NCBI GenBank assembly: GCA_905178155.1
Contig: CAJINV010000003.1
Location: 7,673,882 to 7,737,881 of the forward strand
Origin: Amoebophrya sp. A120
Taxonomy: Eukaryota; Protista; Dinoflagellata
Length of the DNA: 64,000 nt
Direction of reading: 5' to 3'
Both the position numbers and the translations under genes were made by a program. This document shows, one piece after another, positions 7,298 to 37,474 of this stretch (position 1 is the first letter of the stretch; each line of letters begins with the position of its first letter). Below the pieces are notes generated by a model that saw only the letters and a list, made by a program, of their open reading frames with translations, searched no databases and had not been told where the DNA came from.

Positions 7298-9379
7298 CTA
7301 CGCCTCAACGACAAAGTCCAAAGCCGACGTTTCTCCATGCGTTCGCTTCCAATTTTGTCGTATCGCCATGCGAATGCTCTCCGCCACGCTGCCCGGGTCT
7401 TCAGCCGCAAGCATCCAGTGTCGAATCTGGTCCCCGCTGGGCCACATGGACACTACCGGCGTCGTGAGTGCACAGTCCAGTTCGTTCAGGCCTCCGCGGT
7501 CGGGCCACTGTACCGCGTCGAGCCACTGTGGGGACGCAAACACCGCGTTTCCGACACTGTACCAAATGAGCTCATACTGAAACCCGCGGAGCATCCTCGC
7601 CTGGTACGAGAGAGAGCAGCCCCATGGCTTGGGCATGCTGCCTCCGCTGCGAGCACGGCCGTCGAACTGGTAAAATTCCTCTAAGTTCTCCGCGGTGTAA
7701 GGAGATGAAAATGAAGAGGAAGCAGCCCCCGGGAAGATGTGGTCTGAACTATCTCGGAGCTCACTTTTTGTGCGTGTTTCGTCGCTCCGCCCAGCACGCG
7801 TCCACTTCTGGGAAAAACGGAAAGGCGGTGGAACCCCATCGTACACCTCCGTGAGAATAAGACTGGGCAGCGGCGGCAGTTCCTTTAGAACGCGTGGATG
7901 GCTACCCATGTTGGTTTCCGTGTACATATTTCCGGGTGCTGGTCTTTGCTGAAGCACAGTCTGCAGCAAGGCTTGTAACACGTCGCAATCAAAGCTATCG
8001 ATGTCTATCTTTACTATGTCCACGACCGGCAAGCCTCGTGACTTGCGTAGTGTTCGACGCGCGGCCACTTTCTCCTGCGACAAGGTGGTATCATTTTTCC
8101 GTGGGCCATAGTACCCTTCCGCCGCCAAAATTGCGCTTAAGACCCGCTGCCCGACGTTTTCCGGCGTCACGGAAGAACACAGAACGGGAATTCGCGGCCA
8201 GTTTCGCTTGTGCCGCTGGCAATCACGAGGGTTGGCCTCCACGGCCAACGCAAGGCGAATTTCTTGTTGCCGGTCAAAAAACAAGCTGGGAAACGGGTCC
8301 TCGTGCCACCCATCGTTGGCGCCCATGTTGATGAAAGAATCAAACTGGCGCTTGGTCTTCTGCAGCATGATCGTATTTAGTACCACCAACACATATTCAA
8401 TCGCCAGGGCCGAACTCGCCTCTAGTTGCCACTTTTTCTGTTCGCTTGATGAAGGCAGCTCGTGTGTTTTGCTTGCTTCGCGTCGACGTCCGGCTCGCAA
8501 AATGTCGCTCCACGCTTGCAGGATGTATCTCTGATCGCAAGGCAGAGTGCCGTACGTGAGCTTCTTCCTCTGTTCAAGCACTTCACTGTACGCCGGTTTC
8601 CATCTCCCGACCAGCGGAGCCCACCGATGGAGCGGCTCTTTCGGGCGGTCCGCATAGTGGCTCGAGTGCAGGACTGCTCGTCTTTTTTTCACACTCTCCA
8701 CGTCCAGAAGAGGAGCGGCGTCGTCACGTCCTTTTCCCCTGTAGTACACGGAGGGTGTTGCGTCGCGCGGTTCGGCGTCTCCGGGAAAAAAATTGAAGTA
8801 CTGGCTCGCAACGGCGACCTGCTGATGTCCCAACTCTGCAAAGGCATGCAAAAACTGGAATACTTGCACCCTCAAGTCACTGTGTGGTCCAAAATCTCGA
8901 TGCAGCCGCGTCCCCACCGGGATCGTGCTGAATAGCTTAACTTTTCTTGTGGGTCCAATGATCTGGGCTTCTGCAGCTCCGACGGTTGCAAAATTTGTCA
9001 CTCCGTGCAGACGGTGGAGCTGCGGTTCGTACCGCGCCAGCGCGCCCGGTGGAGCCTTGCTATTCACAGACGCCGGGAATACCGATTCGCGCACGTACCC
9101 CTCCTCGTACGAGTTAACCGGGAGGGCGAACGGGGTCTTTACAGCAGAAGTTGCAGAAGTTGCATTTGTACTCGCATAGGCTTGCACCTCGCGGTTATCC
9201 ACCTGCGGACTATCATTTGGATAAAACAACGCGAACGCGTCAGCATGCAGCGCTGGAAAAAGGAAGCCGAAGAACCCAGCCGGCTCCTCGTCGCATGCGT
9301 AATTCAGCTCTGCATCATTGAGAAAGGTACACCAATCGCAAATACATTTGTGTTGCCTAAAATCGTCATGCGCAGACAC
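7298..9379 (-). CDS. Protein with C-terminal FkbM-like SAM-dependent methyltransferase domain
   Basis: 693-aa ORF with FINMGANDG, AVEANP, VDIVKIDIDSFDC, LILTEVYDGVPPP, WGCSLS and GNAVF in the order typical of FkbM/Methyltransf_21-like proteins. Confidence 0.6.
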   Translation of the reverse strand: MSAHDDFRQHKCICDWCTFLNDAELNYACDEEPAGFFGFLFPALHADAFALFYPNDSPQVDNREVQAYASTNATSATSAVKTPFALPVNSYEEGYVRESVFPASVNSKAPPGALARYEPQLHRLHGVTNFATVGAAEAQIIGPTRKVKLFSTIPVGTRLHRDFGPHSDLRVQVFQFLHAFAELGHQQVAVASQYFNFFPGDAEPRDATPSVYYRGKGRDDAAPLLDVESVKKRRAVLHSSHYADRPKEPLHRWAPLVGRWKPAYSEVLEQRKKLTYGTLPCDQRYILQAWSDILRAGRRREASKTHELPSSSEQKKWQLEASSALAIEYVLVVLNTIMLQKTKRQFDSFINMGANDGWHEDPFPSLFFDRQQEIRLALAVEANPRDCQRHKRNWPRIPVLCSSVTPENVGQRVLSAILAAEGYYGPRKNDTTLSQEKVAARRTLRKSRGLPVVDIVKIDIDSFDCDVLQALLQTVLQQRPAPGNMYTETNMGSHPRVLKELPPLPSLILTEVYDGVPPPFRFSQKWTRAGRSDETRTKSELRDSSDHIFPGAASSSFSSPYTAENLEEFYQFDGRARSGGSMPKPWGCSLSYQARMLRGFQYELIWYSVGNAVFASPQWLDAVQWPDRGGLNELDCALTTPVVSMWPSGDQIRHWMLAAEDPGSVAESIRMAIRQNWKRTHGETSALDFVVEA

Positions 9380-9404
9380 AACTTACTGTCATGCAGGATG
9401 CAGT

Positions 9405-18419: not shown

Positions 18420-18743
18420 CCGACACCGTACACCCCGCAGCCCAGGGGCCCGCCGGCGCAAAGTACCGCGATCCCGGAGCCCGACGGCGGAAAGGACCGC
18501 ACTCCCGGGGCCGGCCGGCACAAGATACTGCGTCCCGGGGGCCGACTGGCGCAAAATGATGTATCCTCCAGGCTGGAGAGCCCTGGGGCCTGCAGGTGGA
18601 CAATTCCGCAACCACAGGGCCCACCGAAGTACAATATCGCAACCTGAGAGCTTCCCGGCGCAAAGTATCGCAACAAGTGGTCCGCTCCTTGTAAAAGAAT
18701 GACACTGTCGGGCCCACAGCTGGTCCAAAATACTGTGACCTAG
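18420..18743. repeat. Degenerate 31-bp-period GC-rich repeat (left of the LTR element)
   Basis: GGCGCAAAG-like anchors at 18455, 18486, 18517, 18548, then 18595, 18626, 18657. Confidence 0.7.
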
Positions 18744-21700
18744 TGTCAAAATCCTCCCAGATTTCACCAGTAAACCAGCAATAACTGCGAAACTGGCCAA
18801 AACTTTTCTGGCAACAACTTCCACGGGAGCAGTAAAGTTCTGCCAAGGCGAAGCAGGAATACGGGAAGTTTTGGACTTGGTGGATATCTTGCGGCTAAGA
18901 CGTCCGCTGTGGCTGTACTCGGGCGACCGTGCGGCGTGGCTGTATATACACCACACCGCACCAAGGAAGCAGTTACTTGGGGCACTCACTCAGAAAGGTG
19001 GGCCAGGTTTAGCATCTCTTACGGGAGAACGCCATACCTGGTATGCAGACGGTACAGGCATCCGCTGCTACGCGGACAACGTCAAAAATGGTCCAGATAC
19101 CGCGGGAAAGTTTTTCCCCCTTGCCACCGAATTTCCTGCGCGAAGATTCTGGAAAGGTGAAAGCAAGTTGGAAATTGTGTAAGAACGAGGAAACCTGCAG
19201 CGGTTTGCGCGACAGCTGCCGGAAAAGGATCCAGCGTCGTGGGTATCGGGAAGTCAGGAAGAGTCACAATAAGTCTTCTATTGGTGTTTATAAAAAGTCC
19301 CTATTCTTTTCAGGGAACAGCTTCAGGCTTAACAATTAGAAGAGAAAGAGAATAAGTGGCCAACTCTTTTCGAAAAGATCCACGCGTGGAGATCATCTTC
19401 GTGCTTATTTTTTGTGACAAAAAGATGAACTCTTCAGCAAGTTACTCAGAAAAGGAAAAGAAGACGTCTTTATCATCTGTGGAAGCGTCTTCTCATAAAA
19501 AGATCTACACTTTCTGCGTGCGAGCATTGGGCAGATCTTAGCTGCTGTCTCATTGGTTGGCGGTTTTGGTGGTCGTGCTTGTTTTTGAAATTATCATTAA
19601 GAATTTCTTTTCAGGGAAAATCATTTTCAAGCGGCTGTATCTTTCTTCAGGCGACAAAAAGATTTAAGATTGGAGCAAAAGCAAAAAAGTGAATCAACGC
19701 TACTTATTTGAAACAGGCGACACATCTCCACTGCAGTCATTCTTTGCATCCTTTTAAATACAGCGACTATTTACAGCGACAACTTTAAAGCGACTCTCTA
19801 AGCGACATTTTGAAAAAAACTTCCTTTGCTGTATCTCGAAAATAAACCCCAAAGATTAACTTAATCTGACTCCTTCCTGCACGATGCCGCCGAAGGCAAA
19901 GGCCAAGCCCAAGGCAAAGCCGCAGGTGAAGAGGCAGCCACGCAGCCATGGACTGCCTCCAGGACAACAGGCGCTGCCGAATCAGCAGGAACAACAGCCG
20001 CAACAGCAAGGAAATAACGCTGCTGGTCAGCTCCAGACTCCTGCGGGTTTTATCCCTATATTGGATCCGAGTGGTAATCTGGTAGGGATTCAGCAGCTGG
20101 CTCCGGCTGCTCCTGTGATCGCCAACCCCGGGGCTAAACCGAAGGCGGCTAGGGGAAGACCGCGTACGTCTAGTGGACATAAAAGACAGCTAAAGGCAAA
20201 ACGGCAGGCGAGGTGGAAGGAAAAGAAATTCGGGAAGAAGCAGTCAAAGAAGAAAGGAAAAGGGAGAAGGAGAGACGTGCTGTCTGATAGTTCGGAGTCG
20301 GAGGAAGAGAACAACAATTTTTTAGCAATCGAAAACGCACAAGGAGAAGGACTTCTTGCTATCGAGGATATTCCCCGTGACCCTCCGGTTGTCCAAGATG
20401 AAGCCAACGAATACGGCAACCGGTCTCCTGCTTTTGTCCCGGATCAAGGGCAAGAAAACGCAGGAGGAGAAGCACCAAGAAATGCGGGAATTATTAATGT
20501 ATCTATCACTCCGAACACAGGACCGGCTCCGTCCCCGCCTCCACCTCCGGTGTTGATTTTAGGAGCAAGCTCTTCTTCTGGGAGCCAGAATGTAGCACAA
20601 GGACATGCATCGTCTTCATCTTCTGGTGTACCGCGACCATTTCCGCTGCCGCAACTTCGTCCACGTATTCAGCCGAAGGCGAAAATTGGACAGTTGAACA
20701 TGTCCAGGATCAACCGTCTGTGTGCCGGTAAGCCTCCGAGCTCCGGGTCTGATTCTTCAAACAGCTCGGGATCTGACACGTGCACGGAGTCAGATGAGGA
20801 CGAAGAGGAGCACGCAATGCGAAAACAACAAAAATATTTAAACAAGGAAAACAGCAAAAAGCGGAAGCGCGGCTGCAGCTTTGACCGTGAAGAAGAAAGA
20901 GCTGTGCGTCGCGCGGAAACGGAAAGACGTTTTTGGCCTACCTATGGCGAGGATGATGACGAGGAGGAAGAAGAGGAAGAAGAAGGACAAGTGGATCTTC
21001 GTGGTGCAAAGTACGGACCAATTCTAGACATCGGAGATGATTTAAACGACTTTATTGTAGATGATCCTCTTGAAGCAGGAGTGGAAGAAGGAGAGGTGTT
21101 GGAAGACGGAGTTTACGTGTCGACTGTGTACGAAGATGCGCAACTGCGGATCACCATTATTCGTCGACCGGGAGAGCGGTGGCCAAAGGGTCTGCGGGTT
21201 TTCTGGAAGACGTCTAAACCTACGTTGACGTTGGAAGGATACAATCCGGAAAAATTCGACCGGTTTCTGTACCAAACAAAGGACACCGGTTTTGTTGACA
21301 AAACAGAACTCACGGAGTGGGCCCAAGTGATTGTCAACACAATTGACGGGCAGAATCGAACCTGGGATTATTTAACCGACTCTATGGTGGAAAACGACAA
21401 TGTGCTTGATTTTATCAAGTACATGCGGGGCCTTCAAGCAGCAGCTGCCTCCGCTCCTGTGCCCACAGCCTTGGACGAGTTAGATGACCTGTTCGCAGAT
21501 GACAACCCAGTCGCTCCGGCTGCAGTACAACCGTCTCCAACTGCTACTTCAGTTCAGACTTCTACCACGACAACGACTCATGCTCAACCCTCCACAAACA
21601 TCAGTTCAGCTCAGCCTTCGACAAACGTATCAAATACAACTGCGTCTTCATCAGTGGGTACGACGAAGAAAAAGGAGAAAAAGGAAACATTGCTGCCAAC

Positions 21701-24700
21701 CGAGTCAGATGAAGAGGGTGGAGACGAAAATGGGAATGAACCATCTCCAGAACAAGAACTCCCTGCCTCGGTGAGTCCTGAAAAATTAATTGAAGAAATT
21801 ATTTCCCCGACGGAAGCTCAACAAAACTTGACTCGCTTCCTGGGAAATAGCAGTGTCATTGTGGGAGGACGCACATCAGCGAGCGGCAGCAGTGCCAGTA
21901 GCGCTGCCGATGACGACCATCGCTACCCTCCTTTTCAGCTCGGAGAAGACATAGATTGGGATCCCTCCATGCCGTTGCCTGCCCCGTTTCCGACCATCAA
22001 CTCTCCGGCTCACAGTCCAGATGTGCAGCCAGAATCGGCCACGCAGAACGTTCTGCCTTTATCTGATTTGGACCATGCTCTTCCCGATCTGGACATTGCT
22101 ACCCTGGACCACCTGATCAATGTAACCGCGGAATTGGCGGGGCAAGAAAATGAAGACGTTCAAACCGGTTCGTCGCAGCTGCAACAACAGGCGTCTCAGG
22201 TTGAGCCGCTGGATCAGTCGATTTATGAACAAGTGGTGGCTGACCAACAGCTTGCGCTGGCATTGATGCAAGAGGAGCAAGCACTGGGACCGCTGGACAT
22301 TGGCACTACCTTAACGGGGGAGCGGTATAATGCAGATGTGCATCTACAAATCGCACCGAGCCCAGCGATGGCGTTTACTCCGGCATTGTTGCCGGGTGCT
22401 GCATCATCATCGTCTTCCGCGGCGCAGAACCACAACGACTTCCATCACCACAACATTGATCAACATTGGTCGGGAAGGAGACGCTCTAGATCAAGAAGGA
22501 GGCGATCAGTTTCTCGTGGAAGACGCAATAATGGGCTGCTAGCACGACGTACTCCGAGCAAGAAGTGGAGCAAGAGACATGATCCCTCCCACGCGCGGCG
22601 TAGGGAGTGCAAATACTTCTGTCAACTGCATGGTTGGAATACCACGCACGCCAGCGACGACTGTTATCGTCTAAACGACATTACGGAGTATGTGCAGGTA
22701 GAATGGAATCTGTGGGTTCCCTGGCACATCTATTGGAGGGATTACGCACATCTTTATTGGAACAACGCCGACGAGGAATGGAGAGATGAAGCAGTCGCAG
22801 CAGAAAACTCGTACACTCGAGCTCATCCAGAAGAACAAGAACCGGAGGCGGAAGCACCGCCACCCGTTACTCCTGTCGCTGCTCCTCAAGAAGATGTTGT
22901 AATGGAAGACGTGGAAATGGAAAATGCAAACAACAATGATCCCGTCCCGGTGGAGCCAGTGACTCAAGAGCAGCCTTCCGCAGGTGCGCGACGCGGTTCT
23001 CCAATCCCCGAATCCAGCCCGTTGGATGAAGATCGTACCCGTCGTACGTCTTCGGACATGGAGATCGATCTCCCTTCGGAAGGAAGTGATGAGATCTTTG
23101 GGGATGGGCAGGAAAACGAAGAGGAGACGGAAATTGCATCTCCGCCTCCTTCTGCGTCTCCACCTGAAACACAGCTGGCGATCTTTGACCCGGAAGTTAG
23201 AAAGGAGAAGCTGCGGGTTTGGGGATTGAACGTCAACGCTGTCCGATCTACGACGGAACAAATTCGGAACTTGCCGGAGTTCAAGAAAATTCTGGAAAAA
23301 TACGGAACAAATAAGTTCTTGCAGTTGGTCCGCTACGGTTTTAACAAGAACATGGCTTCTTCGCCGGTGATTGGGTTAGTGGATGGGGCCATCGAGCATC
23401 AACGGGAATTGGAGAGCGATGAGCAAATTCCCGCTTCTCCGTCTCCTGGAGATGTAGCTGCACCTCCACAAGAACAAGAAAATGCAGATCAAGAATTAAC
23501 GTCTCCTGACTTGTCACAACAAGGAATTCCCGTGAACAACGTCGCCTCGATCTTGGATGACGCCGTTGGTGCGACGGCTGAAGAGGAAGAAAGCTTTGCA
23601 ATGATGGATGAAATTCCCACGGAAGGACAAGAACAGGCAGAAGACCTTACAAGGATGTATGAAGTTCACACGGGAGATTATCTGCCGATTTTGTTCGGAT
23701 CTCCTGTGTCTCCAGAACAACCTGTTGTTCCATTGTGGTCTGATTTTGTGGAACAGGGAGGAAATGAACAAGAATTGGAAGCTCCGCGTTCTCCAGAAAA
23801 AGACGTCCAAGAAGAATACGAACCAGGTGGTGATGACAGTAATGAGAACGTCGGAAATGCTGACCAGGAGAATCAGCAGGCCAATGATCAGGATCTCGGT
23901 GGAAACAACAACATCGTCGTTCAAAACAACAACGTCGTCGTGCAGGACAATAATCAACAAGTGATTGCAAACATGTCTCCCGCTGTTGATCAAGGAAATA
24001 CGGCAAGCATAGCCGTGCAAACGACGGGCGATGATCAACAGGCGCAAGTAGATAGAGAAATTGATCTTGATGTGCAACCAGGAATTTACAACCTCGCTCC
24101 TGGAACTTACAACGTAAACTTCAGGATCTCGGAAGAGCGGCCCTGCAATATCCAGTAAAAGAACAATTCGTTACCAGCAAGGCAGAATAGAATCATCCGG
24201 AATAACATCAGAAGAATCCAGCAGTAGTCGCGAAAAGACGGGATTGAAGAGATGCGAAAAGGAGATGATTATCCAAAGAAAGATATTCGAACTATCTTCA
24301 GATTAGAGCGTGAGTATAACTATCACATCCTTTTATATCAAATGGGTAGCACTTCTCATTCAATAGATGAAAATCGCTGCTTCAGAAAAGACGTTTTTTC
24401 CAGAACCAAAGCAATACGCGCTTGCATCTACTGAGGCGTAGGATGCTAAGTGATCCATCAATTTCAAATTCCTCGGTAAAGTTTTTTGCTGAAGAACAAC
24501 TTATTGGAAAAAGCAAAGAAATAAAGCTGTCAAATATTCATCGGTGAAGACTGGATTGTCAATACTTGTTTTTTGGTAATAAGAAGAACACTGGGACACA
24601 CAAGTAACAAGACCTATAAAAGACAGCTTAATAAAAAAACTCATTCATCTTTTTGTTTCGCACGATCATCGGGCACAATCTTGAATTTTTATATCTCTCT

Positions 24701-25240
24701 TTTTTGCTGTCGCCCCACAGCCAATTTTTTGTTGGAAGTTTTCGAGGAAGGCAACACGACACTCATGCGGACAGAAAAAATCTCTCATTTTAATCAAAAA
24801 CAGTAGAAGAGATTTTCGTGAAGACGACAACGGCCTTGTTTGTCTGTCTTAACTCGACTTCTAGAACTAATTTCTGAATAAAAAACTGAAAAAAGTAAAA
24901 AACACTGAAAAACCAAAAAAACGCAAAAAATAACCTTGCTTCGCACTCTCGATCGACTCTCTGTTGATCTCCTTCTGGGTAAGGACGAACGGAGACTTAT
25001 CTCCAGTTCGTGTTTTCACAACATCACGGCTTTTAAGAAGAATCGGCTTAATCTGGTCTGACGTGTCGGCTTTATCGTAGGAAGACATTTAAATCGTACA
25101 TTACCTGTTGCCAATCGTATGTCGTTGCAGACGCACAAATAAATCGTCTACTTTCGGTGAACTCGTCCGTCGTTGAGGAGAGCGCTCAGTTGCGGATTTC
25201 TCGGAATTGTTCGATGACCAGTTTTAACCCGTTTCTGACA
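18744..25240 (+). repeat. 5' LTR (6497 bp)
   Basis: Begins TGTCAAAATCCTCCCAG, ends CCCGTTTCTGACA; similarity to 30244-36740 stops at these ends. Confidence 0.92.
19884..24158 (+). CDS. 1424-aa LTR-encoded protein: basic N-terminus, acidic low-complexity body, RS-rich patch plus CHHC zinc-knuckle-like motif
   Basis: Uninterrupted ATG-TAA ORF, intact in both LTRs; FCQLHGWNTTHASDDC at ~22617-22664. Confidence 0.85.
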   Translation: MPPKAKAKPKAKPQVKRQPRSHGLPPGQQALPNQQEQQPQQQGNNAAGQLQTPAGFIPILDPSGNLVGIQQLAPAAPVIANPGAKPKAARGRPRTSSGHKRQLKAKRQARWKEKKFGKKQSKKKGKGRRRDVLSDSSESEEENNNFLAIENAQGEGLLAIEDIPRDPPVVQDEANEYGNRSPAFVPDQGQENAGGEAPRNAGIINVSITPNTGPAPSPPPPPVLILGASSSSGSQNVAQGHASSSSSGVPRPFPLPQLRPRIQPKAKIGQLNMSRINRLCAGKPPSSGSDSSNSSGSDTCTESDEDEEEHAMRKQQKYLNKENSKKRKRGCSFDREEERAVRRAETERRFWPTYGEDDDEEEEEEEEGQVDLRGAKYGPILDIGDDLNDFIVDDPLEAGVEEGEVLEDGVYVSTVYEDAQLRITIIRRPGERWPKGLRVFWKTSKPTLTLEGYNPEKFDRFLYQTKDTGFVDKTELTEWAQVIVNTIDGQNRTWDYLTDSMVENDNVLDFIKYMRGLQAAAASAPVPTALDELDDLFADDNPVAPAAVQPSPTATSVQTSTTTTTHAQPSTNISSAQPSTNVSNTTASSSVGTTKKKEKKETLLPTESDEEGGDENGNEPSPEQELPASVSPEKLIEEIISPTEAQQNLTRFLGNSSVIVGGRTSASGSSASSAADDDHRYPPFQLGEDIDWDPSMPLPAPFPTINSPAHSPDVQPESATQNVLPLSDLDHALPDLDIATLDHLINVTAELAGQENEDVQTGSSQLQQQASQVEPLDQSIYEQVVADQQLALALMQEEQALGPLDIGTTLTGERYNADVHLQIAPSPAMAFTPALLPGAASSSSSAAQNHNDFHHHNIDQHWSGRRRSRSRRRRSVSRGRRNNGLLARRTPSKKWSKRHDPSHARRRECKYFCQLHGWNTTHASDDCYRLNDITEYVQVEWNLWVPWHIYWRDYAHLYWNNADEEWRDEAVAAENSYTRAHPEEQEPEAEAPPPVTPVAAPQEDVVMEDVEMENANNNDPVPVEPVTQEQPSAGARRGSPIPESSPLDEDRTRRTSSDMEIDLPSEGSDEIFGDGQENEEETEIASPPPSASPPETQLAIFDPEVRKEKLRVWGLNVNAVRSTTEQIRNLPEFKKILEKYGTNKFLQLVRYGFNKNMASSPVIGLVDGAIEHQRELESDEQIPASPSPGDVAAPPQEQENADQELTSPDLSQQGIPVNNVASILDDAVGATAEEEESFAMMDEIPTEGQEQAEDLTRMYEVHTGDYLPILFGSPVSPEQPVVPLWSDFVEQGGNEQELEAPRSPEKDVQEEYEPGGDDSNENVGNADQENQQANDQDLGGNNNIVVQNNNVVVQDNNQQVIANMSPAVDQGNTASIAVQTTGDDQQAQVDREIDLDVQPGIYNLAPGTYNVNFRISEERPCNIQ

Positions 25241-25255
25241 TGGTGAGGCCAGAGC
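25241..25255 (+). other. Candidate primer-binding site TGGTGAGGCCAGAGC
   Basis: TGG (complement of tRNA CCA) immediately follows the 5' LTR; cognate tRNA not identified. Confidence 0.6.
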
Positions 25256-25470: not shown

Positions 25471-26565
25471 ATGAACTTCAACTTGCCTCCAGCTGACCAC
25501 CTCACATTTCCCAACTTGCCCAATTCTGTTGAACCTCGAGAAGTAATTGAGCCTTGCGCTATCTTTTTCGGTAACTGCCCGGTCGGAGATCCCAGATATC
25601 TATTTTCCCACAACTCAGTTCCGTACGTGGTCAATTTGGACGAGCGAGCAGATCTTCGGATTCCCGGACGACGCGGAACTTTGTTATTGCCAACTGAACA
25701 CGTAGTCGATCTAATAGATCCGATTGCTCGGAAAGCAAACAATCAATTTTTGAACTGGACCTACGACCGCAACGCATTCGTTGTGTTGACAACCTTCAGT
25801 AGCAAGGAAGAATACCTGGCAAGTACCTTTCGGAGAACCCACCACTTGCGTGCTGACCAAGCAGACCGATTTGTGACGGAGAGTCGACGAGTCGTGCTTG
25901 CCTGGCCGATTCGGTGGTGCCAAGTGAGGACTCCGCAGAGAAGACAACAAGTCAACGGCGACTCTATCATCGGCTTTTCCACCATCCAACGGCATCTTCC
26001 TGAGTGGTGCATTCCTCCGGAAGACGCTAATACGGAGACGCAAATAAGGACTATTCCGTCTAGTGAAGATCGAGAAGTTAGAGCACAATTGCACGAAGGT
26101 CCTCCAACTACTACACCGGTCCATCGTTTAATCGCACCAGAAGACGCTCAAAGAATTGCTGCTCCTGCACCAACTTCCTTTTCGCTATCAAGAACCCTCG
26201 AGTTGGTGTACGGTCAATTAGCACCTACCTTTCCCCGGACCCTGGCTGACCAAGACAGATTCTTTGATCTCATCGGTTTGGGCGACAGACCATCATCGTC
26301 ACCATCGAATCAAAGATCGTCTCCGCCCCGGGAGGGAACCCCAAGACCGTATACCGCTCCGCGTCCTCAAACGCCTCTCCGCGTCCCATCGGAGAACGTT
26401 TGCATCATTTGCTTGGAGCAAGAAGCCAATGCAACCTTCCTCCATCGGTTCACTGGACACACGTGCTGTTGCTTTCGCTGCGCTCAGCAGGCCTTTGAGC
26501 GGGACCGCAGGTGTCCAATTTGTCGGATGCAAGTAGACCGGGTGATTAAAAACTATCGGAGTTAA
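25471..26565 (+). CDS. Element cargo: 364-aa protein with C-terminal MDM2-type C2H2C4 RING (putative E3 ligase)
   Basis: CIIC-x10-H-x4-H-x3-C-x2-C-x10-CPIC-RMQVDRVIKNYRS* at 26401-26565. Confidence 0.85.
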   Translation: MNFNLPPADHLTFPNLPNSVEPREVIEPCAIFFGNCPVGDPRYLFSHNSVPYVVNLDERADLRIPGRRGTLLLPTEHVVDLIDPIARKANNQFLNWTYDRNAFVVLTTFSSKEEYLASTFRRTHHLRADQADRFVTESRRVVLAWPIRWCQVRTPQRRQQVNGDSIIGFSTIQRHLPEWCIPPEDANTETQIRTIPSSEDREVRAQLHEGPPTTTPVHRLIAPEDAQRIAAPAPTSFSLSRTLELVYGQLAPTFPRTLADQDRFFDLIGLGDRPSSSPSNQRSSPPREGTPRPYTAPRPQTPLRVPSENVCIICLEQEANATFLHRFTGHTCCCFRCAQQAFERDRRCPICRMQVDRVIKNYRS

Positions 26566-26597: not shown

Positions 26598-27176
26598 ATG
26601 TGGTATTTGATCGTCGATCAATCCAAACCATTACAACTACATCTTCAAGATTCTTCCCACAGTAAATCCAACGGTACCAAGTGCGGGTGGATATTGTTGA
26701 CCGTAAAGGACGAGCTCTGCATTCAACGGATTGTCTTTCCTCGAGAAGTGATTATCATTTTCCGCTCACATCTGGAAGAAGACCCGGAATCCCTTGGAGT
26801 TTGGGACGCACTGCTACAGATAAGAATTCTGGCTCGCTTTGCGTCAGTAGTCGTCTGCTACATTAAAGGACAATTCTACTTCACTCCCTTGCACTACGCG
26901 ACGGAAACAGCAGGACTGGGATCAGTAAGATTGCACTACATTCCGCGAGTAAAATTCCCGGAAAAGATCTCTGGTTTCTACCAGTCTGCAGTGGTAAGGA
27001 TAAACGAACTTCGGTGCCCGGACGTAATCGACTACAACGTTCTCAGTTACTCGAAGAAGACCTTGCAGCTGACAGGAAAAATCAATCGGACCCTCACGCA
27101 CCCTTTTTCGTATTCCAGTGTGAAGAACATTAAAGACGGCTACACCTGGAATTACGAGCCGGAACCAGAAGAATAA
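26598..27176 (+). CDS. Element cargo: 192-aa hypothetical protein
   Basis: ATG-initiated intronless ORF 32 nt after the RING ORF; globular-looking composition. Confidence 0.6.
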   Translation: MWYLIVDQSKPLQLHLQDSSHSKSNGTKCGWILLTVKDELCIQRIVFPREVIIIFRSHLEEDPESLGVWDALLQIRILARFASVVVCYIKGQFYFTPLHYATETAGLGSVRLHYIPRVKFPEKISGFYQSAVVRINELRCPDVIDYNVLSYSKKTLQLTGKINRTLTHPFSYSSVKNIKDGYTWNYEPEPEE

Positions 27177-27198
27177 ACCGTCTTCATCATAATGCTAC

Positions 27199-28104
27199 AT
27201 GGCTGATTACTCTCTCGACCTGAGACTATTCTTCGGATTACCAATAAGGGTGAATCGGGAAAACATCAGTAAAAGAACCGGTCTTCCAGGAATTCTAGCG
27301 GGGATCAGTACACGCGAGTACCTACGCTGTGGATTCCAAGGGCAACAACTCATTGGAGACCCAGAAGTACACGAGGAGTTACAAAAAACAGATTTGTTCG
27401 TCTTCTTGGAAAAGTCTCTCTGTGAAGGACTTTTGGTTTACCCGACTACAGGCGGAAAGCAACATAGATTCATCCGGGTGGCACCGTTGGAGTTTGTACA
27501 GCTGAACCGTAGTTCAGCGGCAACCTGTATTTCGCAAGCAGGCGAGCAACTCTTCTTGAGGAACATAAATCCTCTGTGCAACATCTGTGACGGCTCGCTG
27601 ATAATCCTGAACAAAGATCACCCGGAGGGATGAGAAAACAACTACTGCTTCGCCACACTCAAGCACGCATTGTTCTTGGCGTATCGGTGTAGGAGACCCC
27701 TTAAACCGCGAGAAAATTTCCAGAGAGTTCACTTCCGTGAAGAACCAGACGAAGAACAAGTGGACGACATACCAATCACGAGCAAGGAGGTAGCAAGAAT
27801 AAAATCGGAGCCGGTGATACCAAAGAACTACAACGCCTTTGAAAGCGACCCGTACTGTCAGTTCATTCACGACTCGGGAGCACCATTTCAAGCCATCAAT
27901 TTTGAGTGCGCTCTCGTACCGGAAATTCCGAATTTTATCAACCACTACAGCCATCCAGGTCGCCTCGGTTACTACCACAACGCACCATCGGAACCTTCAG
28001 TGAGTAACTACACTGGGACTCGGTCAGACGACTCGTTTCGGTCAAGCATTCGTAGCTTTAGGACAGCTCGTGCAATCCACTACATCGAAAACGGATACAG
28101 CTAA
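27199..28104 (+). CDS. Element cargo: ~301-codon frame interrupted by one in-frame TGA (27631-27633)
   Basis: ORFs 27199-27633 and 27670-28104 share a frame: ...CNICDG...HPEG*ENNYCFATLKHALFLAY... Confidence 0.55.
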
Positions 28105-28411
28105 GCTTCAGTTTTATGCTTTCCGCAATACTAGACTTCTTCGTCGACCTACTAGAAGAAGCAAAAAGAACAATCATACTCGGTATTGACGAAGCGATTA
28201 CATTCGTTCAATCCGCGCGCTAAAAGAACAAAGAAGACGGAAAAATCAGTACGCACAACTACAATTGGGCTAAAGGCTACGGACAACACTTTCGTGCGAT
28301 CAGGAGAAACATCGTACAGCAAGACGTTAAACAACAAACGGAATAAAATATCTTCAACAGCAACAACTACTTCAACAGTTCCCTCGTATTAAAACGACTC
28401 CCACATACAAC

Positions 28412-28647
28412 ATGTGTTGTTTTGAATTTCTCAACCGGGTGTTTAACACCAAAGCCTACCAAATCCAACAGCAGGCCGAATTGGAAGAAAAGATGAAGAT
28501 GATCGACGCTGCTGTTGAAGAATCCCTCAAGAAACACCGCACCCCATCCAAAAGACGGTCTAATCAGACGGAAGAAGATGATTTTTCTGCTGTTTCTCCA
28601 GGACCGCAACCCACTCCCATTTGCGTGGAAGTTGAGGAAGACGATGA
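28412..28647 (+). CDS. Element ORF start (MCCFEF..., coiled-coil-like), truncated by assembly gap
   Basis: ATG at 28412, open until the N run; link to pol across the gap unproven. Confidence 0.5.
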
Positions 28648-28747
28648 NNNNNNNNNNNNNNNNNNNNNNNNNNNNNNNNNNNNNNNNNNNNNNNNNNNNN
28701 NNNNNNNNNNNNNNNNNNNNNNNNNNNNNNNNNNNNNNNNNNNNNNN
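28648..28747. other. Assembly gap (100 N, probably placeholder length)
   Basis: Run of exactly 100 N. Confidence 0.99.
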
Positions 28748-30772
28748 CAAGAACTCGGACAACTCCACAGTGCGAAGCGGCAAGTAGAAGAGCAAAAAGA
28801 CGGAGAAATGGATTCGGATGGTGATCAAGACGGTTTGTACAGTATCACTTCGCGTGAGCTGGTAACCGATCTCACCAGTCTACATGAGTCTCATCCTCAC
28901 CGTTTTCTACTTGGAGCCGTAGGAATACACGTGGATGATTTGTTGACAGCAGGATCTGAACTTGTTTACCTTCGTCTTCAGATTTTGTTTGACATGTTCG
29001 ACGTCTCGGGACTCGCAATGTTGCAGTTAGGAAAAAGAGACGCTTTTGTCGGGAAGGAAATAGCCTGTCTTCCGGAAGCATTTGATGCTTATGAAGTTAA
29101 ACAGGAACTGGAAGAGGAGGTCAAGTTCTTGAAAGCCATTGAGTTTGAAAATCCGGAGCCCTTGTTTACCGTTAACTACACCGAAGAACAAATTGCGGAA
29201 GTAGAAAAAGCAACAGGTTTGAAGAGAAGCAACAAAGCAGAAGATTTACCTGCGGTGGAGCCAGTACCATTCACCTTTGAAGCTGCCGCAGAACGTCTTC
29301 GACCAACAATTCCTGTTTTTTACGTCCTCAGTCAAGAATCCTATGTGGAAAAGATAAAGTGTTTGGAACGGGAAGAGGTAGAGGAGTACTGGAGGAAGAG
29401 GTCATTTGCAAAGAATAAGTTTGCGTTGAGTCAAATCAAATCACCTTTTCGGGGAAGAATTGGCGAGCTTCTTTGGTGCACAAAGACGTCAGCGGTGTTA
29501 TTAGAACGTCTCTCGGACCTAGCAAGCGCGGTCCACTTGATGGAGAACTACAACACCTACGTGGAGGAAGTAGAACAATTCTGCGAGCGGCTGAACTCGT
29601 TCATCCTCTTTGCTCAGGGAAGTCAGTTTTGCTCTAGAAGAATCTCCCACACTGGCGGTTTGGGAGAATTCGGGGTGGTTGGATTAGCAGACGCATCCAA
29701 GACCAAGATTGGGGGTTTGGTCTGCCTTGCGGGACGAAACTCACAACGTGTCACGCCGATTACATCATGGAGCAAAGCTCCAAATCGTGTCTTTTCCAGT
29801 TCAACCGGAATTGAACTGTTGGCACAGCGGATCCTAGTGTCGGAGTGTTTGTGGCACAAACAAATTGGAATTGACCTGTCTCTCGTTCCGTACGACATGC
29901 CTCTCCTGCAATTCACGGACTCGAAGAACTTGGTGATCAGTGATCCTTCGGAGAAAAATTTGAAGTCGGACTTCTTGTTTTTAAACCAACTTTTGGAACT
30001 CAAACAGTTGGCAGTGGAACACACGCGTGGAAAAACAATGCCACCAGACGCGCTGACAAAGAGTCCGCTGTACTCCGAGGTTGCTACCCTTCACCTTGTG
30101 AACAGGTTTGGAATCCTAGATCGGGAACTGAGTAATCGGATTAGCACGTTCATAAGCCAGAACCTAGAACGACTCCAGGACCTCGACTCTGGCAACAAGA
30201 CGGAAAAGCCCCCAGTTTCGCAGCTACAAGAAGAAAATATTGGTGTCAAAATCCTCCCAGATTTCACCAGTAAACCAGCAATAACTGCGAAACTGGCCAA
30301 AACTTTTTTGACAACAACTTCTACGGGAGCAATAAAGTTTTGCCAAGGCGAAGCAGGAATACGGGGAATTTTGGATTTGGTGGATATCTTGCGGTTAAGA
30401 CGTCCGCTGTGGCTGTACTCGGGTGACCGTGCGGCGTGGCTGTATATACACCACACCGCACCAAGGAAGCAGTTATTCGGGGCACTCACTCAGAAAGGTG
30501 GGCCAGGTTTAGCATCTCTTACGGGAGAACGCCATACCTGGTATGCAGACGGTACAAGCATCCGTTGCTACACGGACAACATCAAAAATGGTCCAGATAC
30601 CGCGGGAAAGTTTTTCCCCCTTGCCACCGAATTTCCTGCGCGAAGATTCTGGAAAGGTGAAAGCAAGTTGGAAATTGTGGAAGAACGAGGAAACCTGCAG
30701 CGGTTTGCGCGACAGCTGCCGGAAAAGGATCCAGCGTCGGGGGTATCGGGAAGTCAGGAAGAGTCACAATAA
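28748..30772 (+). CDS. pol: Copia-type Pol C-terminal part: RT (C-terminal half), RNase H and extension into the 3' LTR
   Basis: GIHVDDLL (HVDD at 28928-28939), FVGKEI, LSQESYVEKI, FRGRIGELLW, GLADAS, WSKAPNRVFSSSTGIE, FTDSKNL, MPPDALTK. Confidence 0.88.
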   Translation, partial: QELGQLHSAKRQVEEQKDGEMDSDGDQDGLYSITSRELVTDLTSLHESHPHRFLLGAVGIHVDDLLTAGSELVYLRLQILFDMFDVSGLAMLQLGKRDAFVGKEIACLPEAFDAYEVKQELEEEVKFLKAIEFENPEPLFTVNYTEEQIAEVEKATGLKRSNKAEDLPAVEPVPFTFEAAAERLRPTIPVFYVLSQESYVEKIKCLEREEVEEYWRKRSFAKNKFALSQIKSPFRGRIGELLWCTKTSAVLLERLSDLASAVHLMENYNTYVEEVEQFCERLNSFILFAQGSQFCSRRISHTGGLGEFGVVGLADASKTKIGGLVCLAGRNSQRVTPITSWSKAPNRVFSSSTGIELLAQRILVSECLWHKQIGIDLSLVPYDMPLLQFTDSKNLVISDPSEKNLKSDFLFLNQLLELKQLAVEHTRGKTMPPDALTKSPLYSEVATLHLVNRFGILDRELSNRISTFISQNLERLQDLDSGNKTEKPPVSQLQEENIGVKILPDFTSKPAITAKLAKTFLTTTSTGAIKFCQGEAGIRGILDLVDILRLRRPLWLYSGDRAAWLYIHHTAPRKQLFGALTQKGGPGLASLTGERHTWYADGTSIRCYTDNIKNGPDTAGKFFPLATEFPARRFWKGESKLEIVEERGNLQRFARQLPEKDPASGVSGSQEESQ

Positions 30773-33700
30773 ATCTTTTATTGATGTTTATAAAAAGTCT
30801 CTATTCTTTTCAGGGAACAACTTCAGGTTTAACAATTAGAAGAGAAAGAGAATAAGTGATCAATTCCTTTCGAAAAGATCCACGTGTGAAGATCATCTTC
30901 GTGCTTATTTTTTGTGACAAAAAGATGAATTCTTCAGCAAGTTATTCAGAAAAGGAAAAGAAGACGTCTTTATCATCTGTGGAAGCGTCTTCTCATAAAA
31001 AGATCTACACTTTCCGCGTGCGAACATTGGACAGATCTTAACTGCTGTTTCATTGGTTGGTGGTTTTGGTGGTCGTACTTGTTTTTGAAATTATCATTAA
31101 AAATTTCTTTTCAGGGAAAATCATTTTCAAACGGCTGTATCTTTCTTTAGGCGACAAAAAGATTTAAGATTGGAGTAAAAACAAAAAAGTGAATCAACAC
31201 TACTTATTTGAAACAAGCGACGCATCTCTATTGCAATCATTCTTTACATCCTTTTAAATACAGCGACTATTTACAACGACAACTTTAAAGCGACTCTTTA
31301 AGCGACATTTTGAAAAAACTTCCTTTGCTGTATCTCGAAAATAAACCCCAAAGATTAACTTAATCTGACTCCTTCCTGCACGATGCCGCCGAAGGCAAAG
31401 GCCAAGCCCAAGGCAAAGCCGCAGGTGAAGAGGCAGCCACGCAACCAAGGACTGCCTCCAGGACAACAGGCGCTGCCGAATCAGCAGGAACAACAGCCGC
31501 AACAGCAAGGAAATAACGCTGTTGGTCAGTTCCAGATTCCTGCGGGTTTTATCCCTATATTGGATCCGAGTGGTAATCTGGTAGGGATTCAGCAGCTGGC
31601 TCCGGCTGCTCCTGTGATCGCCAACCCCGGGGCTAAACCGAAGGCGGCCAGGGGAAGACCGCGTACGTCTAGTGGACATAAAAGACAGTTAAAGGCCAAA
31701 CGGCAGGCGAGGTGGAAGGAAAAGAAATTCGGGAAGAAGCAGTCAAAGAAGAAAGGAAAAGGGAGAAGGAAAAACGTGCTGTCTGATAGTTCGGAGTCGG
31801 AGGAAGAGAACAACAATTTTTTAGCAATCGAAAACGCACAAGGAGAAGGACTTCTTGCTATCGAGGATATTCCCCGTGACCCTCCGGTTGTCCAAGATGA
31901 AGCCAACGAATACGGCAACCGGTCTCCTGCTTTTGTCCCGGATCAAGGGCAAGAAAACGCAGGAGGAGAAGCACCAAGAAATGCGGGAAATATTAATGTA
32001 TCTATCACTCCGAACACAGGACCGGCTCCGTCCCCGCCTCCACCTCCGGTGTTGATTTTAGGAGCAAGCTCTTCTTCCGGGAACCAGAATGTAGCACAAG
32101 GACAAGCATCATCTTCATCTTCTGGTGTACCACGACCATTTCCGCTGCCGCAACTTCGTCCACGTATTCAGCCGAAGGCGAAAAATGGACAGTTGAACAT
32201 GTCCAGGATCAACCGTCTGTGTGCCGGTAAGCCTCCGAGCTCCGGGTCTGATTCTTCAAACAGCTCGGGATCTGACACGTGCACGGAGTCAGATGAGGAC
32301 GAAGAGGAGCACGCAATGCGAAAACAACAAAAATATTTAAACAAGGAAAACAGCAAAAAGCGGAAGCGCGGCTGCAGCTTTGACCGTGAAGAAGAAAGAG
32401 CTGTGCGTCGCGCGGAAACGGAAAGACGTTTTTGGCCTACCTATGGCGAGGATGATGACGAGGAGGAAGAAGAGGAAGAAGAAGGACAAGTGGATCTTCG
32501 TGGTGCAAAGTACGGACCAATTCTAGACATCGGAGATGATTTAAACGACTTTATTGTAGATGATCCTCTTGAAGCAGGAGTGGAAGAAGGAGAGGTGTTG
32601 GAAGACGGAGTTTACGTGTCGACTGTGTACGAAGATGCGCAACTGCGGATCACCATTATTCGTCGACCGGGAGAGCGGTGGCCAAAGGGTCTGCGGGTTT
32701 TCTGGAAGACGTCTAAACCTACGTTGACGTTGGAAGGATACAATCCGGAAAAATTCGACCGGTTTCTGTACCAAACAAAGGACACCGGTTTTGTTGACAA
32801 AACAGAACTCACGGAGTGGGCCCAAGTGATTGTCAACACAATTGACGGGCAGAATCGAGCCTGGGATTATTTAACCGACTCTATGGTGGAAAACGACAAT
32901 GTGCTTGATTTTATCAAGTACATGCGGGGCCTTCAAGCAGCAGCTGCCTCCGCTCCTGTGCCCACAGCCTTGGACGAGTTAGATGACCTGTTCGCAGATG
33001 ACAACCCAGTCGCTCCGGCTGCAGTGCAACCGTCTCCAACTGCTACTTCAGTTCAGACTTCTACCACGACAACGACTCATGCTCAACCCTCCACAAACAT
33101 CAGTTCAGCTCAGCCTTCGACAAACGTATCAAATACAACTGCGTCTTCATCAGTGGGTACGACGAAGAAAAAGGAGAAAAAGGAAACATTGCTGCCAACC
33201 GAGTCAGATGAAGAGGGTGGAGACGAAAATGGGAATGAACCATCTCCAGAACAAGAACTCCCTGCCTCGGTGAGTCCTGAAAAATTAATTGAAGAAATTA
33301 TTTCCCCGACGGAAGCTCAACAAAACTTGACTCGCTTCCTGGGAAATAGCAGTGTCATTGTGGGAGGACGCACATCAGCGAGCGGCAGCAGTGCCAGTAG
33401 CGCTGCCGATGACGACCATCGCTACCCTCCTTTTCAGCTCGGAGAAGACATAGATTGGGATCCCTCCATGCCGTTGCCTGCCCCGTTTCCGACCATCAAC
33501 TCTCCGGCTCACAGTCCAGATGTGCAGCCAGAATCGGCCACGCAGAACGTTCTGCCTTTATCTGATTTGGACCATGCTCTTCCCGATCTGGACATTGCTA
33601 CCCTGGACCACCTGATCAATGTAACCGCGGAATTGGCGGGGCAAGAAAATGAAGACGTTCAAACCGGTTCGTCGCAGCTGCAACAACAGGCGTCTCAGGT

Positions 33701-36700
33701 TGAGCCGCTGGATCAGTCGATTTATGAACAAGTGGTGGCTGACCAACAGCTTGCGCTGGCATTGATGCAAGAGGAGCAAGCACTGGGACCGCTGGACATT
33801 GGCACTACCTTAACGGGGGAGCGGTATAATGCAGATGTGCATCTACAAATCGCACCGAGCCCAGCGATGGCGTTTACTCCGGCATTGTTGCCGGGTGCTG
33901 CATCATCATCGTCTTCCGCGGCGCAGAACCACAACGACTTCCATCACCACAACATTGATCAACATTGGTCGGGAAGGAGACGCTCTAGATCAAGAAGGAG
34001 GCGATCAGTTTCTCGTGGAAGACGCAATAATGGGCTGCTAGCACGACGTACTCCGAGCAAGAAGTGGAGCAAGAGACATGATCCCTCCCACGCGCGGCGT
34101 AGGGAGTGCAAATACTTCTGTCAACTGCATGGTTGGAATACCACGCACGCCAGCGACGACTGTTATCGTCTAAACGACATTACGGAGTATGTGCAGGTAG
34201 AATGGAATCTGTGGGTTCCCTGGCACATCTATTGGAGGGATTACGCACATCTTTATTGGAACAACGCCGACGAGGAATGGAGAGATGAAGCAGTCGCAGC
34301 AGAAAACTCGTACACTCGAGCTCATCCAGAAGAACAAGAACCGGAGGCGGAAGCACCGCCACCCGTTACTCCTGTCGCTGCTCCTCAAGAAGATGTTGTA
34401 ATGGAAGACGTGGAAATGGAAAATGCAAACAACAATGATCCCGTCCCGGTGGAACCAGTGATTCAAGAGCAGCCTTCCGCAGGTGCGCGACGCGGTTCTC
34501 CAATCCCCGAATCCAGCCCGTTGGATGAAGATCGTACCCGTCGTACGTCTTCGGACATGGAGATCGATCTCCCTTCGGAAGGAAGTGATGAGATCTTTGG
34601 GGATGGGCAGGAAAACGAAGAGGAGACGGAAATTGCATCTCCGCCTCCTTCTGCGTCTCCACCTGAAACACAGCTGGCGATCTTTGACCCGGAAGTTAGA
34701 AAGGAGAAGCTGCGGGTTTGGGGATTGAACGTCAACGCTGTCCGATCTACGACGGAACAAATTCGGAACTTGCCGGAGTTCAAGAAAATTCTGGAAAAAT
34801 ACGGAACAAATAAGTTCTTGCAGTTGGTCCGCTACGGTTTTAACAAGAACATGGCTTCTTCGCCGGTGATTGGGTTAGTGGATGGGGCCATCGAGCATCA
34901 ACGGGAATTGGAGAGCGATGAGCAAATTCCCGCTTCTCCGTCTCCTGGAGATGTAGCTGCACCTCCACAAGAACAAGAAAATGCAGATCAAGAATTAACG
35001 TCTCCTGACTTGTCACAACAAGGAATTCCCGTGAACAACGTCGCCTCGATCTTGGATGACGCCGTTGGTGCGACGGCTGAAGAGGAAGAAAGCTTTGCAA
35101 TGATGGATGAAATTCCCACGGAAGGACAAGAACAGGCAGAAGACCTTACAAGGATGTATGAAGTTCACACGGGAGATTATCTGCCGATTTTGTTCGGATC
35201 TCCTGTGTCTCCAGAACAACCTGTTGTTCCATTGTGGTCTGATTTTGTGGAACAGGGAGGAAATGAACAAGAATTGGAAGCTCCGCGTTCTCCAGAAAAA
35301 GACGTCCAAGAAGAATACGAACAAGGTGGTGATGACAGTAATGAGAACGTCGGAAATGCTGACCAGGAGAATCAGCAGGCCAATGATCAGGATTTCGGTG
35401 GAATCAACAACTTCGTCGTTCAAAACAACAGCGTCGTCGTGCAGGACAATAATCAACAAGTGATTGCAAACATGTCTCCCGCTGTTGATCAAGGAAATAC
35501 GGCAAGCGTAGCCGTGCAAACGACGGGCGATGATCAACAGGCGCAAGTAGATGGAGAAATTGATCTTGATGTGCAGCCAGGAATTTACAACCTCGCTCCT
35601 GGAACTTACAACGTAAGCTTCAGGATCTCGGAAGAGCGGTCCTGCGTTATCCAGTAAAAGAGCAATTCGTTACCAGCAAGGCAGAATAGAATCATCCGGA
35701 ATAACATCAGAAGAGTCCAGCAGTAGTCGCGAAAAGACGGGATTGAAGAGATGTGAAAAGGAGATGATTATCCAAAGAAAGATATTCGAATTATCTTCAG
35801 ATTAGAACGCGAGTATAACTATCACATCCTTTTATATCAAATGGGTAGTGCTTCTCATTCAATAGATGAAAGTCGCTGTTTCAGAAAAGACGTTTTTTCC
35901 AGAACCAAAGCAATACGCGCTTGCATCTACTGAGACGTAGGATGCTAAGTGATCCATCAATTTCAAATTCCTCGGCAAAGTTTTTTGCTGAAGAACAACT
36001 TATTGGAAAAAGCAAAGAAGTAAAACTGTCAAATATTCATCGGTGAAGACTGGATTGCCAATACTTGTTTTTTGGTAATAAGAAGAACACTGGGACACAC
36101 AAGTAACAAGACCTATAAAAGACAGCTTAATAAAAAAAACTCATTCAGCTTTTTGCTTCGCACGATCATCGGGTACAATCTTGAGTTTTTATATCTCTCT
36201 TTTTTGCTGTCGCCCCACAGCCAATTTTTTGTTGGAAGTTTTCGAGGAAGGCAACACGACATTCATGCGGACAGAAAAAATCTCTCATTTCAATCAAAAA
36301 CAGTAGAAGAGATTTTCGTGAAGACGACAGCGGCCTTGTTTGTCTGTCTTAACTCGACTTCTAGAACTAATTTCTGAATAAAAAACTGAAAAAAGTAAAA
36401 AACACTTAAAAACCAAAAAAACACAAAAAATAACCTTGCTTCGCACTCTCGATCGACTCTCTGTTGATCTCCTTCTGGGTAAGGACGAGCGGAGACTTAT
36501 CTCCAGTTCGTGTTTTCACAACGTCACGGCTTTTAAGAAGAATCGGCTTAATCTGGTCTGACGTGTCGGTTTTATCGTAGGAAGACATTTAAATCGTACA
36601 TTACCTGTTGCCAATCGTATGTCGTTGCAGACGCACAAATAAATCGTCTACTTTCGGTGAACTCGTCCGTCGTTGAGGAGAGCGCTCAGTTGCGGATTTC

Positions 36701-36740: not shown

Positions 36741-36859
36741 CCTAGGCACCCAATAGTGGAAAACATTGCACCCATTTTGGCGCGTTGACGGAAAAAAATG
36801 CATTGTAACGGCCATCGCAGCTCTTTCATTGGAAAATCCTACAATTGGAAGGTTGGGCA

Positions 36860-37470: not shown

Positions 37471-37474
37471 GCCT

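Follow-up and report, generated by a model that had tools for sequence, protein, structure and literature searches.

A stretch of 64,000 nucleotides from Amoebophrya sp. A120 (assembly GCA_905178155.1, contig CAJINV010000003.1, positions 7,673,882 to 7,737,881 of the forward strand), here referred to as the window and numbered from its first nucleotide, contains a long terminal repeat (LTR) retrotransposon in which a single open reading frame (ORF) of 1424 codons lies whole inside both LTRs. Since the pol gene of the element reads 176 codons into the LTR, this frame, which we refer to as the LTR ORF, is by its position an extra gene downstream of pol. The features of its product suggest an accessory protein that acts in the nucleus, binds RNA and regulates the element, rather than a Gag protein, a reading to which we give about an even chance. 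The evidence for this unusual architecture is strong; the molecular function is one that we infer.

The element is bounded by 2 direct repeats of 6497 bp, located at positions 18744 to 25240 and 30244 to 36740 on the plus strand, which are 98.2% identical in sequence with a total of 116 differences. Each copy begins with TGTCA and ends with TGACA, the sequence CCTAG is found at both outer flanks (18739 to 18743 and 36741 to 36745), and TGG follows directly 3' of the first repeat, where it starts a sequence that resembles a primer binding site (PBS; 25241 to 25255, plus strand). Because of the TG...CA ends, the shared CCTAG target site duplication (TSD) and the TGG after the first repeat, the 2 repeats are the true LTRs of a single insertion. 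This agrees with the initial annotation, made from the sequence alone, which had described the ORF as LTR-encoded. A scan of the window for tRNA genes identified none, and the only match in an Rfam scan was at the chance level.

It could be argued that the repeat has been mis-assembled, or represents a tandem duplication, and that the ORF does not lie within a true LTR. An assembly gap of 100 N (28648 to 28747) is indeed located between the repeats, and only 4 differences fall in the central 3 kb of each LTR versus 112 elsewhere (p 2.5e-25), as in collapsed repeats. However, the terminal TGTCA and TGACA, the identical 5-bp TSD at the outer ends and the TGG exactly after the first repeat make an artefact of this kind very improbable, and a collapse would alter the divergence estimate but not the boundaries. 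The near-identical centre of the LTR is suggestive of gene conversion or of repeats that were collapsed in the assembly.

The LTR ORF extends from position 19884 to 24158 on the plus strand as 1424 open, intronless codons that occupy two thirds of the 6.5-kb LTR, and an equally intact twin of 1424 amino acids is located at 31383 to 35657 (plus strand) in the 3' LTR. The other 5 frames of the region contain between 32 and 76 stop codons apiece, and the chance of an equally long open frame, given the base composition, is about 1e-30. In the 5' LTR, the ORF is preceded by a copy of the pol tail (18745 to 19272, plus strand), and by a spacer of 611 nt (19273 to 19883, plus strand) between the pol stop codon and the ATG of the ORF, which is likely to serve as a promoter or 5' leader. 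It is followed by a 3' non-coding part (24159 to 25240, plus strand), in which we noted AATAAA at 24520, 24630, 24877, and 25138, TATAAA at 24615, and a candidate donor-like site, G/GTAAG, at 24978.

The 3' part of pol is visible to the right of the gap (28748 to 30772, plus strand) and includes the end of the reverse transcriptase domain (RT; HVDD at 28928 to 28939), an RNase H domain at about 29681 to 30070 and a tail, the frame of which stays open across the point where the 3' LTR begins. We identified 5 relatives of this protein, all of which are EukProt models of Amoebophrya sp. AT5.2 (P0002 to P0006, corresponding to g16474, g18344, g16792, g16987, and g18415) and which are 34% to 39% identical to the pol of the window across the RT end and RNase H. 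Their best Pfam match is RVT_2, although with scores under the gathering cut-off, and their domain order, as judged from motif positions, is protease, integrase, RT, and RNase H. On these 2 grounds the element is assigned to Ty1/copia, and not to Ty3/gypsy, which the initial annotation had drawn on for comparison. No integrase match was detected 3' of RNase H in the pol of the window, for which Pfam gave no RNase H match either. The presence of LTR elements in Amoebophrya is reported in the accessible text of an earlier study (PMC7789003).

The protease to HVDD distance is about 1360 amino acids in relative P0006, so that the gap, if the element is intact, would hide at least about 4 kb, including the protease, the integrase, most of the RT and possibly gag, for which there would be room. 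The gene models of 2 of the 5 relatives begin 35 to 50 amino acids upstream of the protease site, and none of the 5 contains a zinc knuckle, which is consistent with gag as a separate ORF. No similarity was observed between the relatives and the LTR ORF or the smaller ORFs of the element. DNA of related elements was sought with pol in metagenome, viral, and prokaryote contigs, and with the RING-encoding ORF described below in viral contigs, and was not found. By eye, the pol tail at 30245 to 30769 contains a motif, H-x2-PR...L-T-G-E-R, like that of domains repeated in the pol of the relatives (P0002 amino acids 1462, 1575, and 2732), although the match of this tail, as present in the LTR, to a profile of 7 H-x2-PR domains from at least 4 relatives was not significant (E 0.74). 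We also observed that P0002 contains about 680 extra residues upstream of the protease (amino acids 1 to 680), which by eye resemble the RT and RNase H of another class of retroelement and are likely to represent a nested insertion or a fused gene model.

The interval between the PBS-like site and the gap is filled by a tightly packed cassette of 4 extra ORFs in the sense orientation. The first of these, which is located directly behind the PBS in what is usually the gag slot, encodes 364 amino acids (25471 to 26565, plus strand) with a predicted C-terminal MDM2-type RING domain (PF13920, E 1.5e-10; best PDB matches to MDM2 RING domains, E 2e-9), whereas its N-terminal 270 amino acids gave no Pfam match. 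It is followed by an ORF of 192 amino acids (26598 to 27176, plus strand), an ORF of about 300 codons (27199 to 28104, plus strand) with a single in-frame TGA at 27631 to 27633, which could be a nonsense change or a site of readthrough, and an ORF that starts with MCCF and runs into the gap (28412 to 28647, plus strand). The MCC start of the latter may presumably be an acylation signal. The ORFs at 26598 to 28647 had no family matches in Pfam, PHROGs, or NCBIfam, and the MCCF ORF, which could represent the beginning of gag or else one more extra ORF, did not match the pol relatives. The element has evidently accumulated accessory genes, and one more such gene is therefore the simplest reading of the LTR ORF.

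The protein encoded by the LTR ORF is mostly of low complexity, with a Lys-rich N-terminus, and contains the motifs quoted in the initial annotation. The sequence KKRKR, which we take to be similar to a nuclear localization signal, is located at amino acids 325 to 329 (20856 to 20870, plus strand), LRITIIRR at amino acids 421 to 428, an Arg/Ser (RS)-rich patch, RRRSRSRRRRS, at amino acids 865 to 875 (22476 to 22508, plus strand) and C-x2-H-x5-H-x4-C at amino acids 913 to 927. With an extra Cys at position 909, the last of these forms a putative zinc knuckle, C-x3-C-x2-H-x5-H-x4-C (amino acids 909 to 927; 22608 to 22664, plus strand). It is followed by a Trp-rich stretch to amino acid 966, also recognized previously, with 7 of the 18 Trp residues of the protein in amino acids 918 to 966. 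The RS patch and the knuckle had been described as consecutive; both are present, but they do not adjoin, the patch ending 38 residues upstream. Hydrophobic islands were identified at amino acids 385 to 436, 463 to 528, 784 to 805, 919 to 964, 1113 to 1166, 1251 to 1286, and 1403 to 1424, and amino acids 385 to 528 (21036 to 21467, plus strand) represent the largest region that looks ordered. A predicted helix, D-x2-LA-x2-L-x3-E, at amino acids 787 to 797 (22242 to 22274, plus strand), recalls what we take to be the MIU ubiquitin-binding motif, a likeness of pattern only.

Only 7 Cys residues are present in the whole protein, 3 of which are located within the 19 residues of the putative knuckle. 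A relaxed pattern, C-x2-[CH]-x3-6-H-x4-C, was obtained in 1 of 20,000 shuffles of the whole protein and in 12 of 20,000 shuffles of the local 100 amino acids, figures that flatter the motif since the pattern was picked after the motif had been seen. Elsewhere in the 6 frames of the window, the relaxed pattern matched the twin ORF and a single minus-strand site at 54301. The protein therefore combines a basic RS patch with a Cys/His motif that appears to be non-random and is suggestive of a zinc knuckle. The canonical CX2CX4HX4C knuckle is absent, the motif here being CX2HX5HX4C. It had been likened to a CX2HX4HX4C knuckle of Gag proteins, and the C-H-H-C order of ligands does occur in Gag of Tat-lineage gypsy elements, as described in the available part of PMC2577118, but the spacing differs (x5), and the string CX2HX4HX4C was absent from the texts returned by one literature search.

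The search for relatives of the LTR ORF was conducted with amino acids 400 to 1190, which gave no matches among 1.84 billion representatives and none among 7981 candidate proteins of 783 to 2492 amino acids. Pattern searches yielded 594 matches in metagenome contigs and 75 in viral contigs, none of which was confirmed as a relative, and an exact look-up of the ORF was empty. No family was assigned by Pfam, PHROGs, or NCBIfam, and a PDB sequence search with 3 of the islands identified nothing under E 0.05. The islands had been proposed for structural comparison; single-sequence AlphaFold models were obtained, with predicted local distance difference test (pLDDT) values of 37.5 for amino acids 385 to 528 and 45.7, and a Foldseek search with these models gave no match at E ≤ 0.001, both the models and the search being uninformative at this pLDDT.

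The initial annotation also raised the possibility that the protein is a displaced Gag. Transcription would then begin in the 5' LTR, immediately behind the copied pol tail, such that the ORF is placed first on the genomic RNA; amino acids 385 to 528 would be a divergent part of the capsid, the RS patch and the CHHC motif the nucleocapsid, and the disordered tracts linkers. By eye, amino acids 445 to 520 resemble the start of a capsid N-terminal domain, a likeness unsupported by any search. In favor of this reading are the non-random knuckle with a basic patch nearby, and the occurrence of CHHC in place of CCHC in Tat Gag proteins (PMC2577118, available part). The interval from the PBS to the gap contains unrelated ORFs and no recognizable gag, no gag is seen elsewhere in the element, as noted previously, and the knuckle is missing from all 5 pol relatives. 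On the other hand, the islands matched no Gag or capsid family and no PDB entry, no pattern like the major homology region (MHR) was identified, and 385 mostly low-complexity residues separate the island at amino acids 385 to 528 from the knuckle. Furthermore, the knuckle has x5 spacing, the element is assigned to copia rather than gypsy, the ORF lies after pol and inside the LTR instead of between the PBS and pol, an R-U5 of 5 to 6 kb would be required, and the gap has space for gag. A displaced Gag thus obtained no support from the searches, and we regard it as unlikely. The negative searches are themselves soft, since Pfam scores the RTs of this lineage below its cut-off. The initial annotation further mentioned an anti-host effector as an alternative, for which the presence of the MDM2-type RING gene in the element would be circumstantial support.

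The possibility that the product is an env-like protein, or a secreted effector that acts on the host cell of the parasite, was also considered. The ORF is located downstream of pol, as env-like ORFs are (PMC7264820), and the lineage is likely to be parasitic. However, no transmembrane or hydrophobic signal segment was identified from hydropathy values, a criterion simpler than a dedicated predictor (the best 19-amino acid value being 0.97), and the N-terminus is rich in Lys, such that a role of this type seems highly improbable. The accessory regulator is instead favored by the combined lack of a Gag family match, an MHR-like pattern and a transmembrane segment, and by a gap large enough for a separate gag.

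An indirect indication that the LTR ORF may be expressed was obtained from the 611-nt spacer, which contains a single sense ATG versus 6.6 expected (P 0.0025; 2000 dinucleotide shuffles). The copy in the 3' LTR contains 2 versus 7.3 expected, a count that is not independent of the 5' copy, whereas the antisense strand is not depleted (11 versus 8.0 expected). The ratio of 0.15 in the spacer is at or just under the lowest value (0.157) of 142 control window-strands. This suggests that the spacer is a scanned, translated leader, and hence that a promoter or a trans-splice site may be located inside the LTR. The spacer contains TATAAA at 19289 and AATAAA at 19841 as candidate sites; the relevance of these 2 signals in this lineage is doubtful. 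A premature stop codon at 19180 interrupts the pol-tail copy in the 5' LTR, as would be expected if this copy is not translated.

For the accessory regulator, we propose the following scheme. In standard reverse transcription an LTR starts at the plus-strand priming site, which would here be located inside the pol tail, so that all sequence downstream of it, including the 1424-amino acid ORF, would be copied into both LTRs. A candidate for this site is a weak, A-rich purine tract at 30226 to 30243 (plus strand), within the pol coding sequence and adjoining the 3' LTR. With its own promoter or trans-splice site, as may be surmised from the ATG-poor spacer, the gene could be expressed from either LTR or from a solo LTR. 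Least certain are the subsequent steps, in which the basic RS patch and the single zinc knuckle might bind the RNA of the element and mediate its export, stabilization or transactivation, in the manner of Rev/Tat-type or CERV-type factors (the latter comparison being based on the accessible text of PMC10309623), while the disordered acidic tracts might recruit host factors, possibly jointly with the RING ligase of the element, and a conventional gag would be located in the gap.

Several observations weigh against this interpretation. In Tat elements, the combination of a basic patch and a CHHC knuckle marks the nucleocapsid (PMC2577118). The polypurine candidate is weak, only a short A-rich stretch adjoining the 3' LTR. 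The ATG test was one of 8 regions and post hoc, with a value of about 0.02 after correction, and an ATG-poor leader equally fits a transcript that starts with Gag. The negative searches for Gag are weak, as shown by RTs under the Pfam cut-off and the lack of an RNase H match on the pol of the window, and the relatives consist of gene models that lack any DNA context, so that an absent gag has no assignable place. Finally, the 2 copies of the ORF differ at 33 nucleotides, 9 of which are synonymous compared with about 10 expected under a context-matched null, and their pN/pS of 0.76 is neutral.

The comparison of substitution rates between copies that had been proposed (dN/dS) was thereby carried out with a neutral outcome, but the 2 LTRs of one insertion do not provide a valid test. 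The result is weak because such LTRs drift after integration, because the changes are mostly located in the disordered ends (29 of the 33 differences), and because the centre of the LTR is near-identical. We do not take the outcome of a Fisher test (36 versus 11 differences in 611 nt, p 2.7e-4) as evidence of selection, because the gradient toward the near-identical centre of the LTR confounds it. It was also observed that 101 of the 116 differences between the LTRs are transitions, which are directional and context-biased on both strands, with T at +1 in 58 of 101 (p 1e-9 to 1e-5, depending on the background) and a purine at −1 in 76 of 101; in each LTR, the half that faces the flank more often carries C (left, 56 of 65; right, 21 of 36). 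This bias possibly reflects a signature of mutation or modification at R-[C/T]-T, or copies of the family that have been mixed in the assembly.

The neutral difference between the copies would also be expected if the ORF is a host or viral gene that was captured recently, has no role in transposition, and is drifting. One neighboring extra ORF carries an in-frame stop, and gene capture by LTR elements has been documented (PMC7264820; and, in its accessible part, PMC6431247). A passenger gene of this type is nevertheless doubtful: the searches with amino acids 400 to 1190, which covered the databases named above and not the host genome, revealed no source gene, and the ORF is intronless and open over 4.3 kb in both copies, with an ATG-poor leader.

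Coding sequences in LTRs are known from vertebrate retroviruses. Both sag of mouse mammary tumor virus (MMTV) and nef of human immunodeficiency virus 1 (HIV-1) are accessory coding sequences located in the U3 part of the LTR, and in MMTV the entire sag ORF is contained in U3 and encodes a type II membrane protein, as stated in the available text of PMC12789967. The element described here differs in being assigned to copia, in encoding a protein of 1424 amino acids without a transmembrane segment and in having a pol gene that overlaps the LTR; no homology to Sag or Nef was found and none is implied. Plant elements with additional ORFs, such as Grande (gene23), RIRE2, Retand, and those with env-like genes, also have extra ORFs without homologues after pol, and the extra ORF in Grande is served by a promoter of its own and has a nuclear product (PMC7264820). 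In these gypsy elements, the extra ORFs are internal and often antisense, whereas the LTR ORF is in the sense orientation and present in both LTRs. Ogre elements have LTRs of 1.9 to 6.5 kb and 1 to 2 extra ORFs, and of Burro/GYPSM1, Burro encodes RING, BIR, MATH, and SUMO-like motifs, but these are giant gypsy elements whose extra coding sequence is described as internal, and not in the LTR, in the accessible part of PMC6431247.

The Tat-clade nucleocapsid shares with the LTR ORF product the C-H-H-C ligand order beside basic residues. In that clade, according to the same portion of PMC2577118, the knuckle follows a capsid core with an MHR and gag is located upstream of pol, whereas here no capsid was detected, the spacing is x2-x5-x4, and the element is assigned to copia. 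Variant knuckles and Gag proteins without knuckles exist, as described there and in further literature, in the parts accessible. The comparison also covers the available text of PMC5408684, PMC12130899, PMC5776459, PMC2774666, and PMC2806351. A literature search of titles and the openings of abstracts, with Repbase and most subscription papers outside its scope, identified no LTR retrotransposon whose LTR contains a large ORF in its entirety, nor the present element. The closest elements by sequence are those of the AT5.2 copia pol models, which resemble it in pol identity, domain order, and weak RVT_2 scores, and differ in that neither the LTR ORF nor the small ORFs resemble them when compared as proteins without DNA context.

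The element is inserted within GC-rich tandem repeats (18445 to 18555 and 36945 to 38167), with a 31-bp unit on both sides, followed by units of 17, 42, and 59 bp. To the left of the element, all 3 long ORFs read from the minus strand, and to the right most long ORFs read from the plus strand; the site therefore looks like a divergent strand-switch region. Among the host ORFs, the product of 52754 to 54700 matched dynactin p62 (E 6e-7), and weak matches were obtained for 7298 to 9382 (FkbM methyltransferase, E 0.008) and 49280 to 51775 (ATP-grasp-like, E 0.086). The ORFs at 57237 to 61511, which has no Pfam match, and 62558 to 63643 have in common, by eye, a segment rich in Cys (C...C...CC...CCG...FC...W.C) that is flanked by hydrophobic stretches, and apparently encode paralogous membrane proteins. 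A small family of dispersed repeats (43119 to 43920, 46089 to 46160, and 57070 to 57164), 83% to 88% identical and present in both orientations, is possibly introner-like or similar to miniature inverted-repeat transposable elements.

LTRs are usually regarded as cis-elements that do not encode proteins, and solo LTRs are considered inert. Since two thirds of the LTR described here consists of one intact gene, an expressible gene would survive recombination between LTRs, and the dose of the protein would follow the number of LTRs. With 4 further extra ORFs, including a RING ligase, the element is reminiscent of a complex retrovirus, and it belongs to a lineage of protists in which retroelements have barely been described. 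If the protein were Gag, the fixed LTR-gag-pol-LTR layout would be broken. A copia lineage of syndinian parasites would then have moved Gag, or at least the nucleocapsid function, into the LTR and filled the gag slot with a virus-like accessory cassette that includes a ubiquitin ligase of the MDM2 type, and a complete gag gene would be present in every solo LTR, a scenario that we consider quite unlikely. If the protein is an accessory factor, it would be a candidate for a role in export or counter-silencing, in a lineage whose chromatin is unusual.

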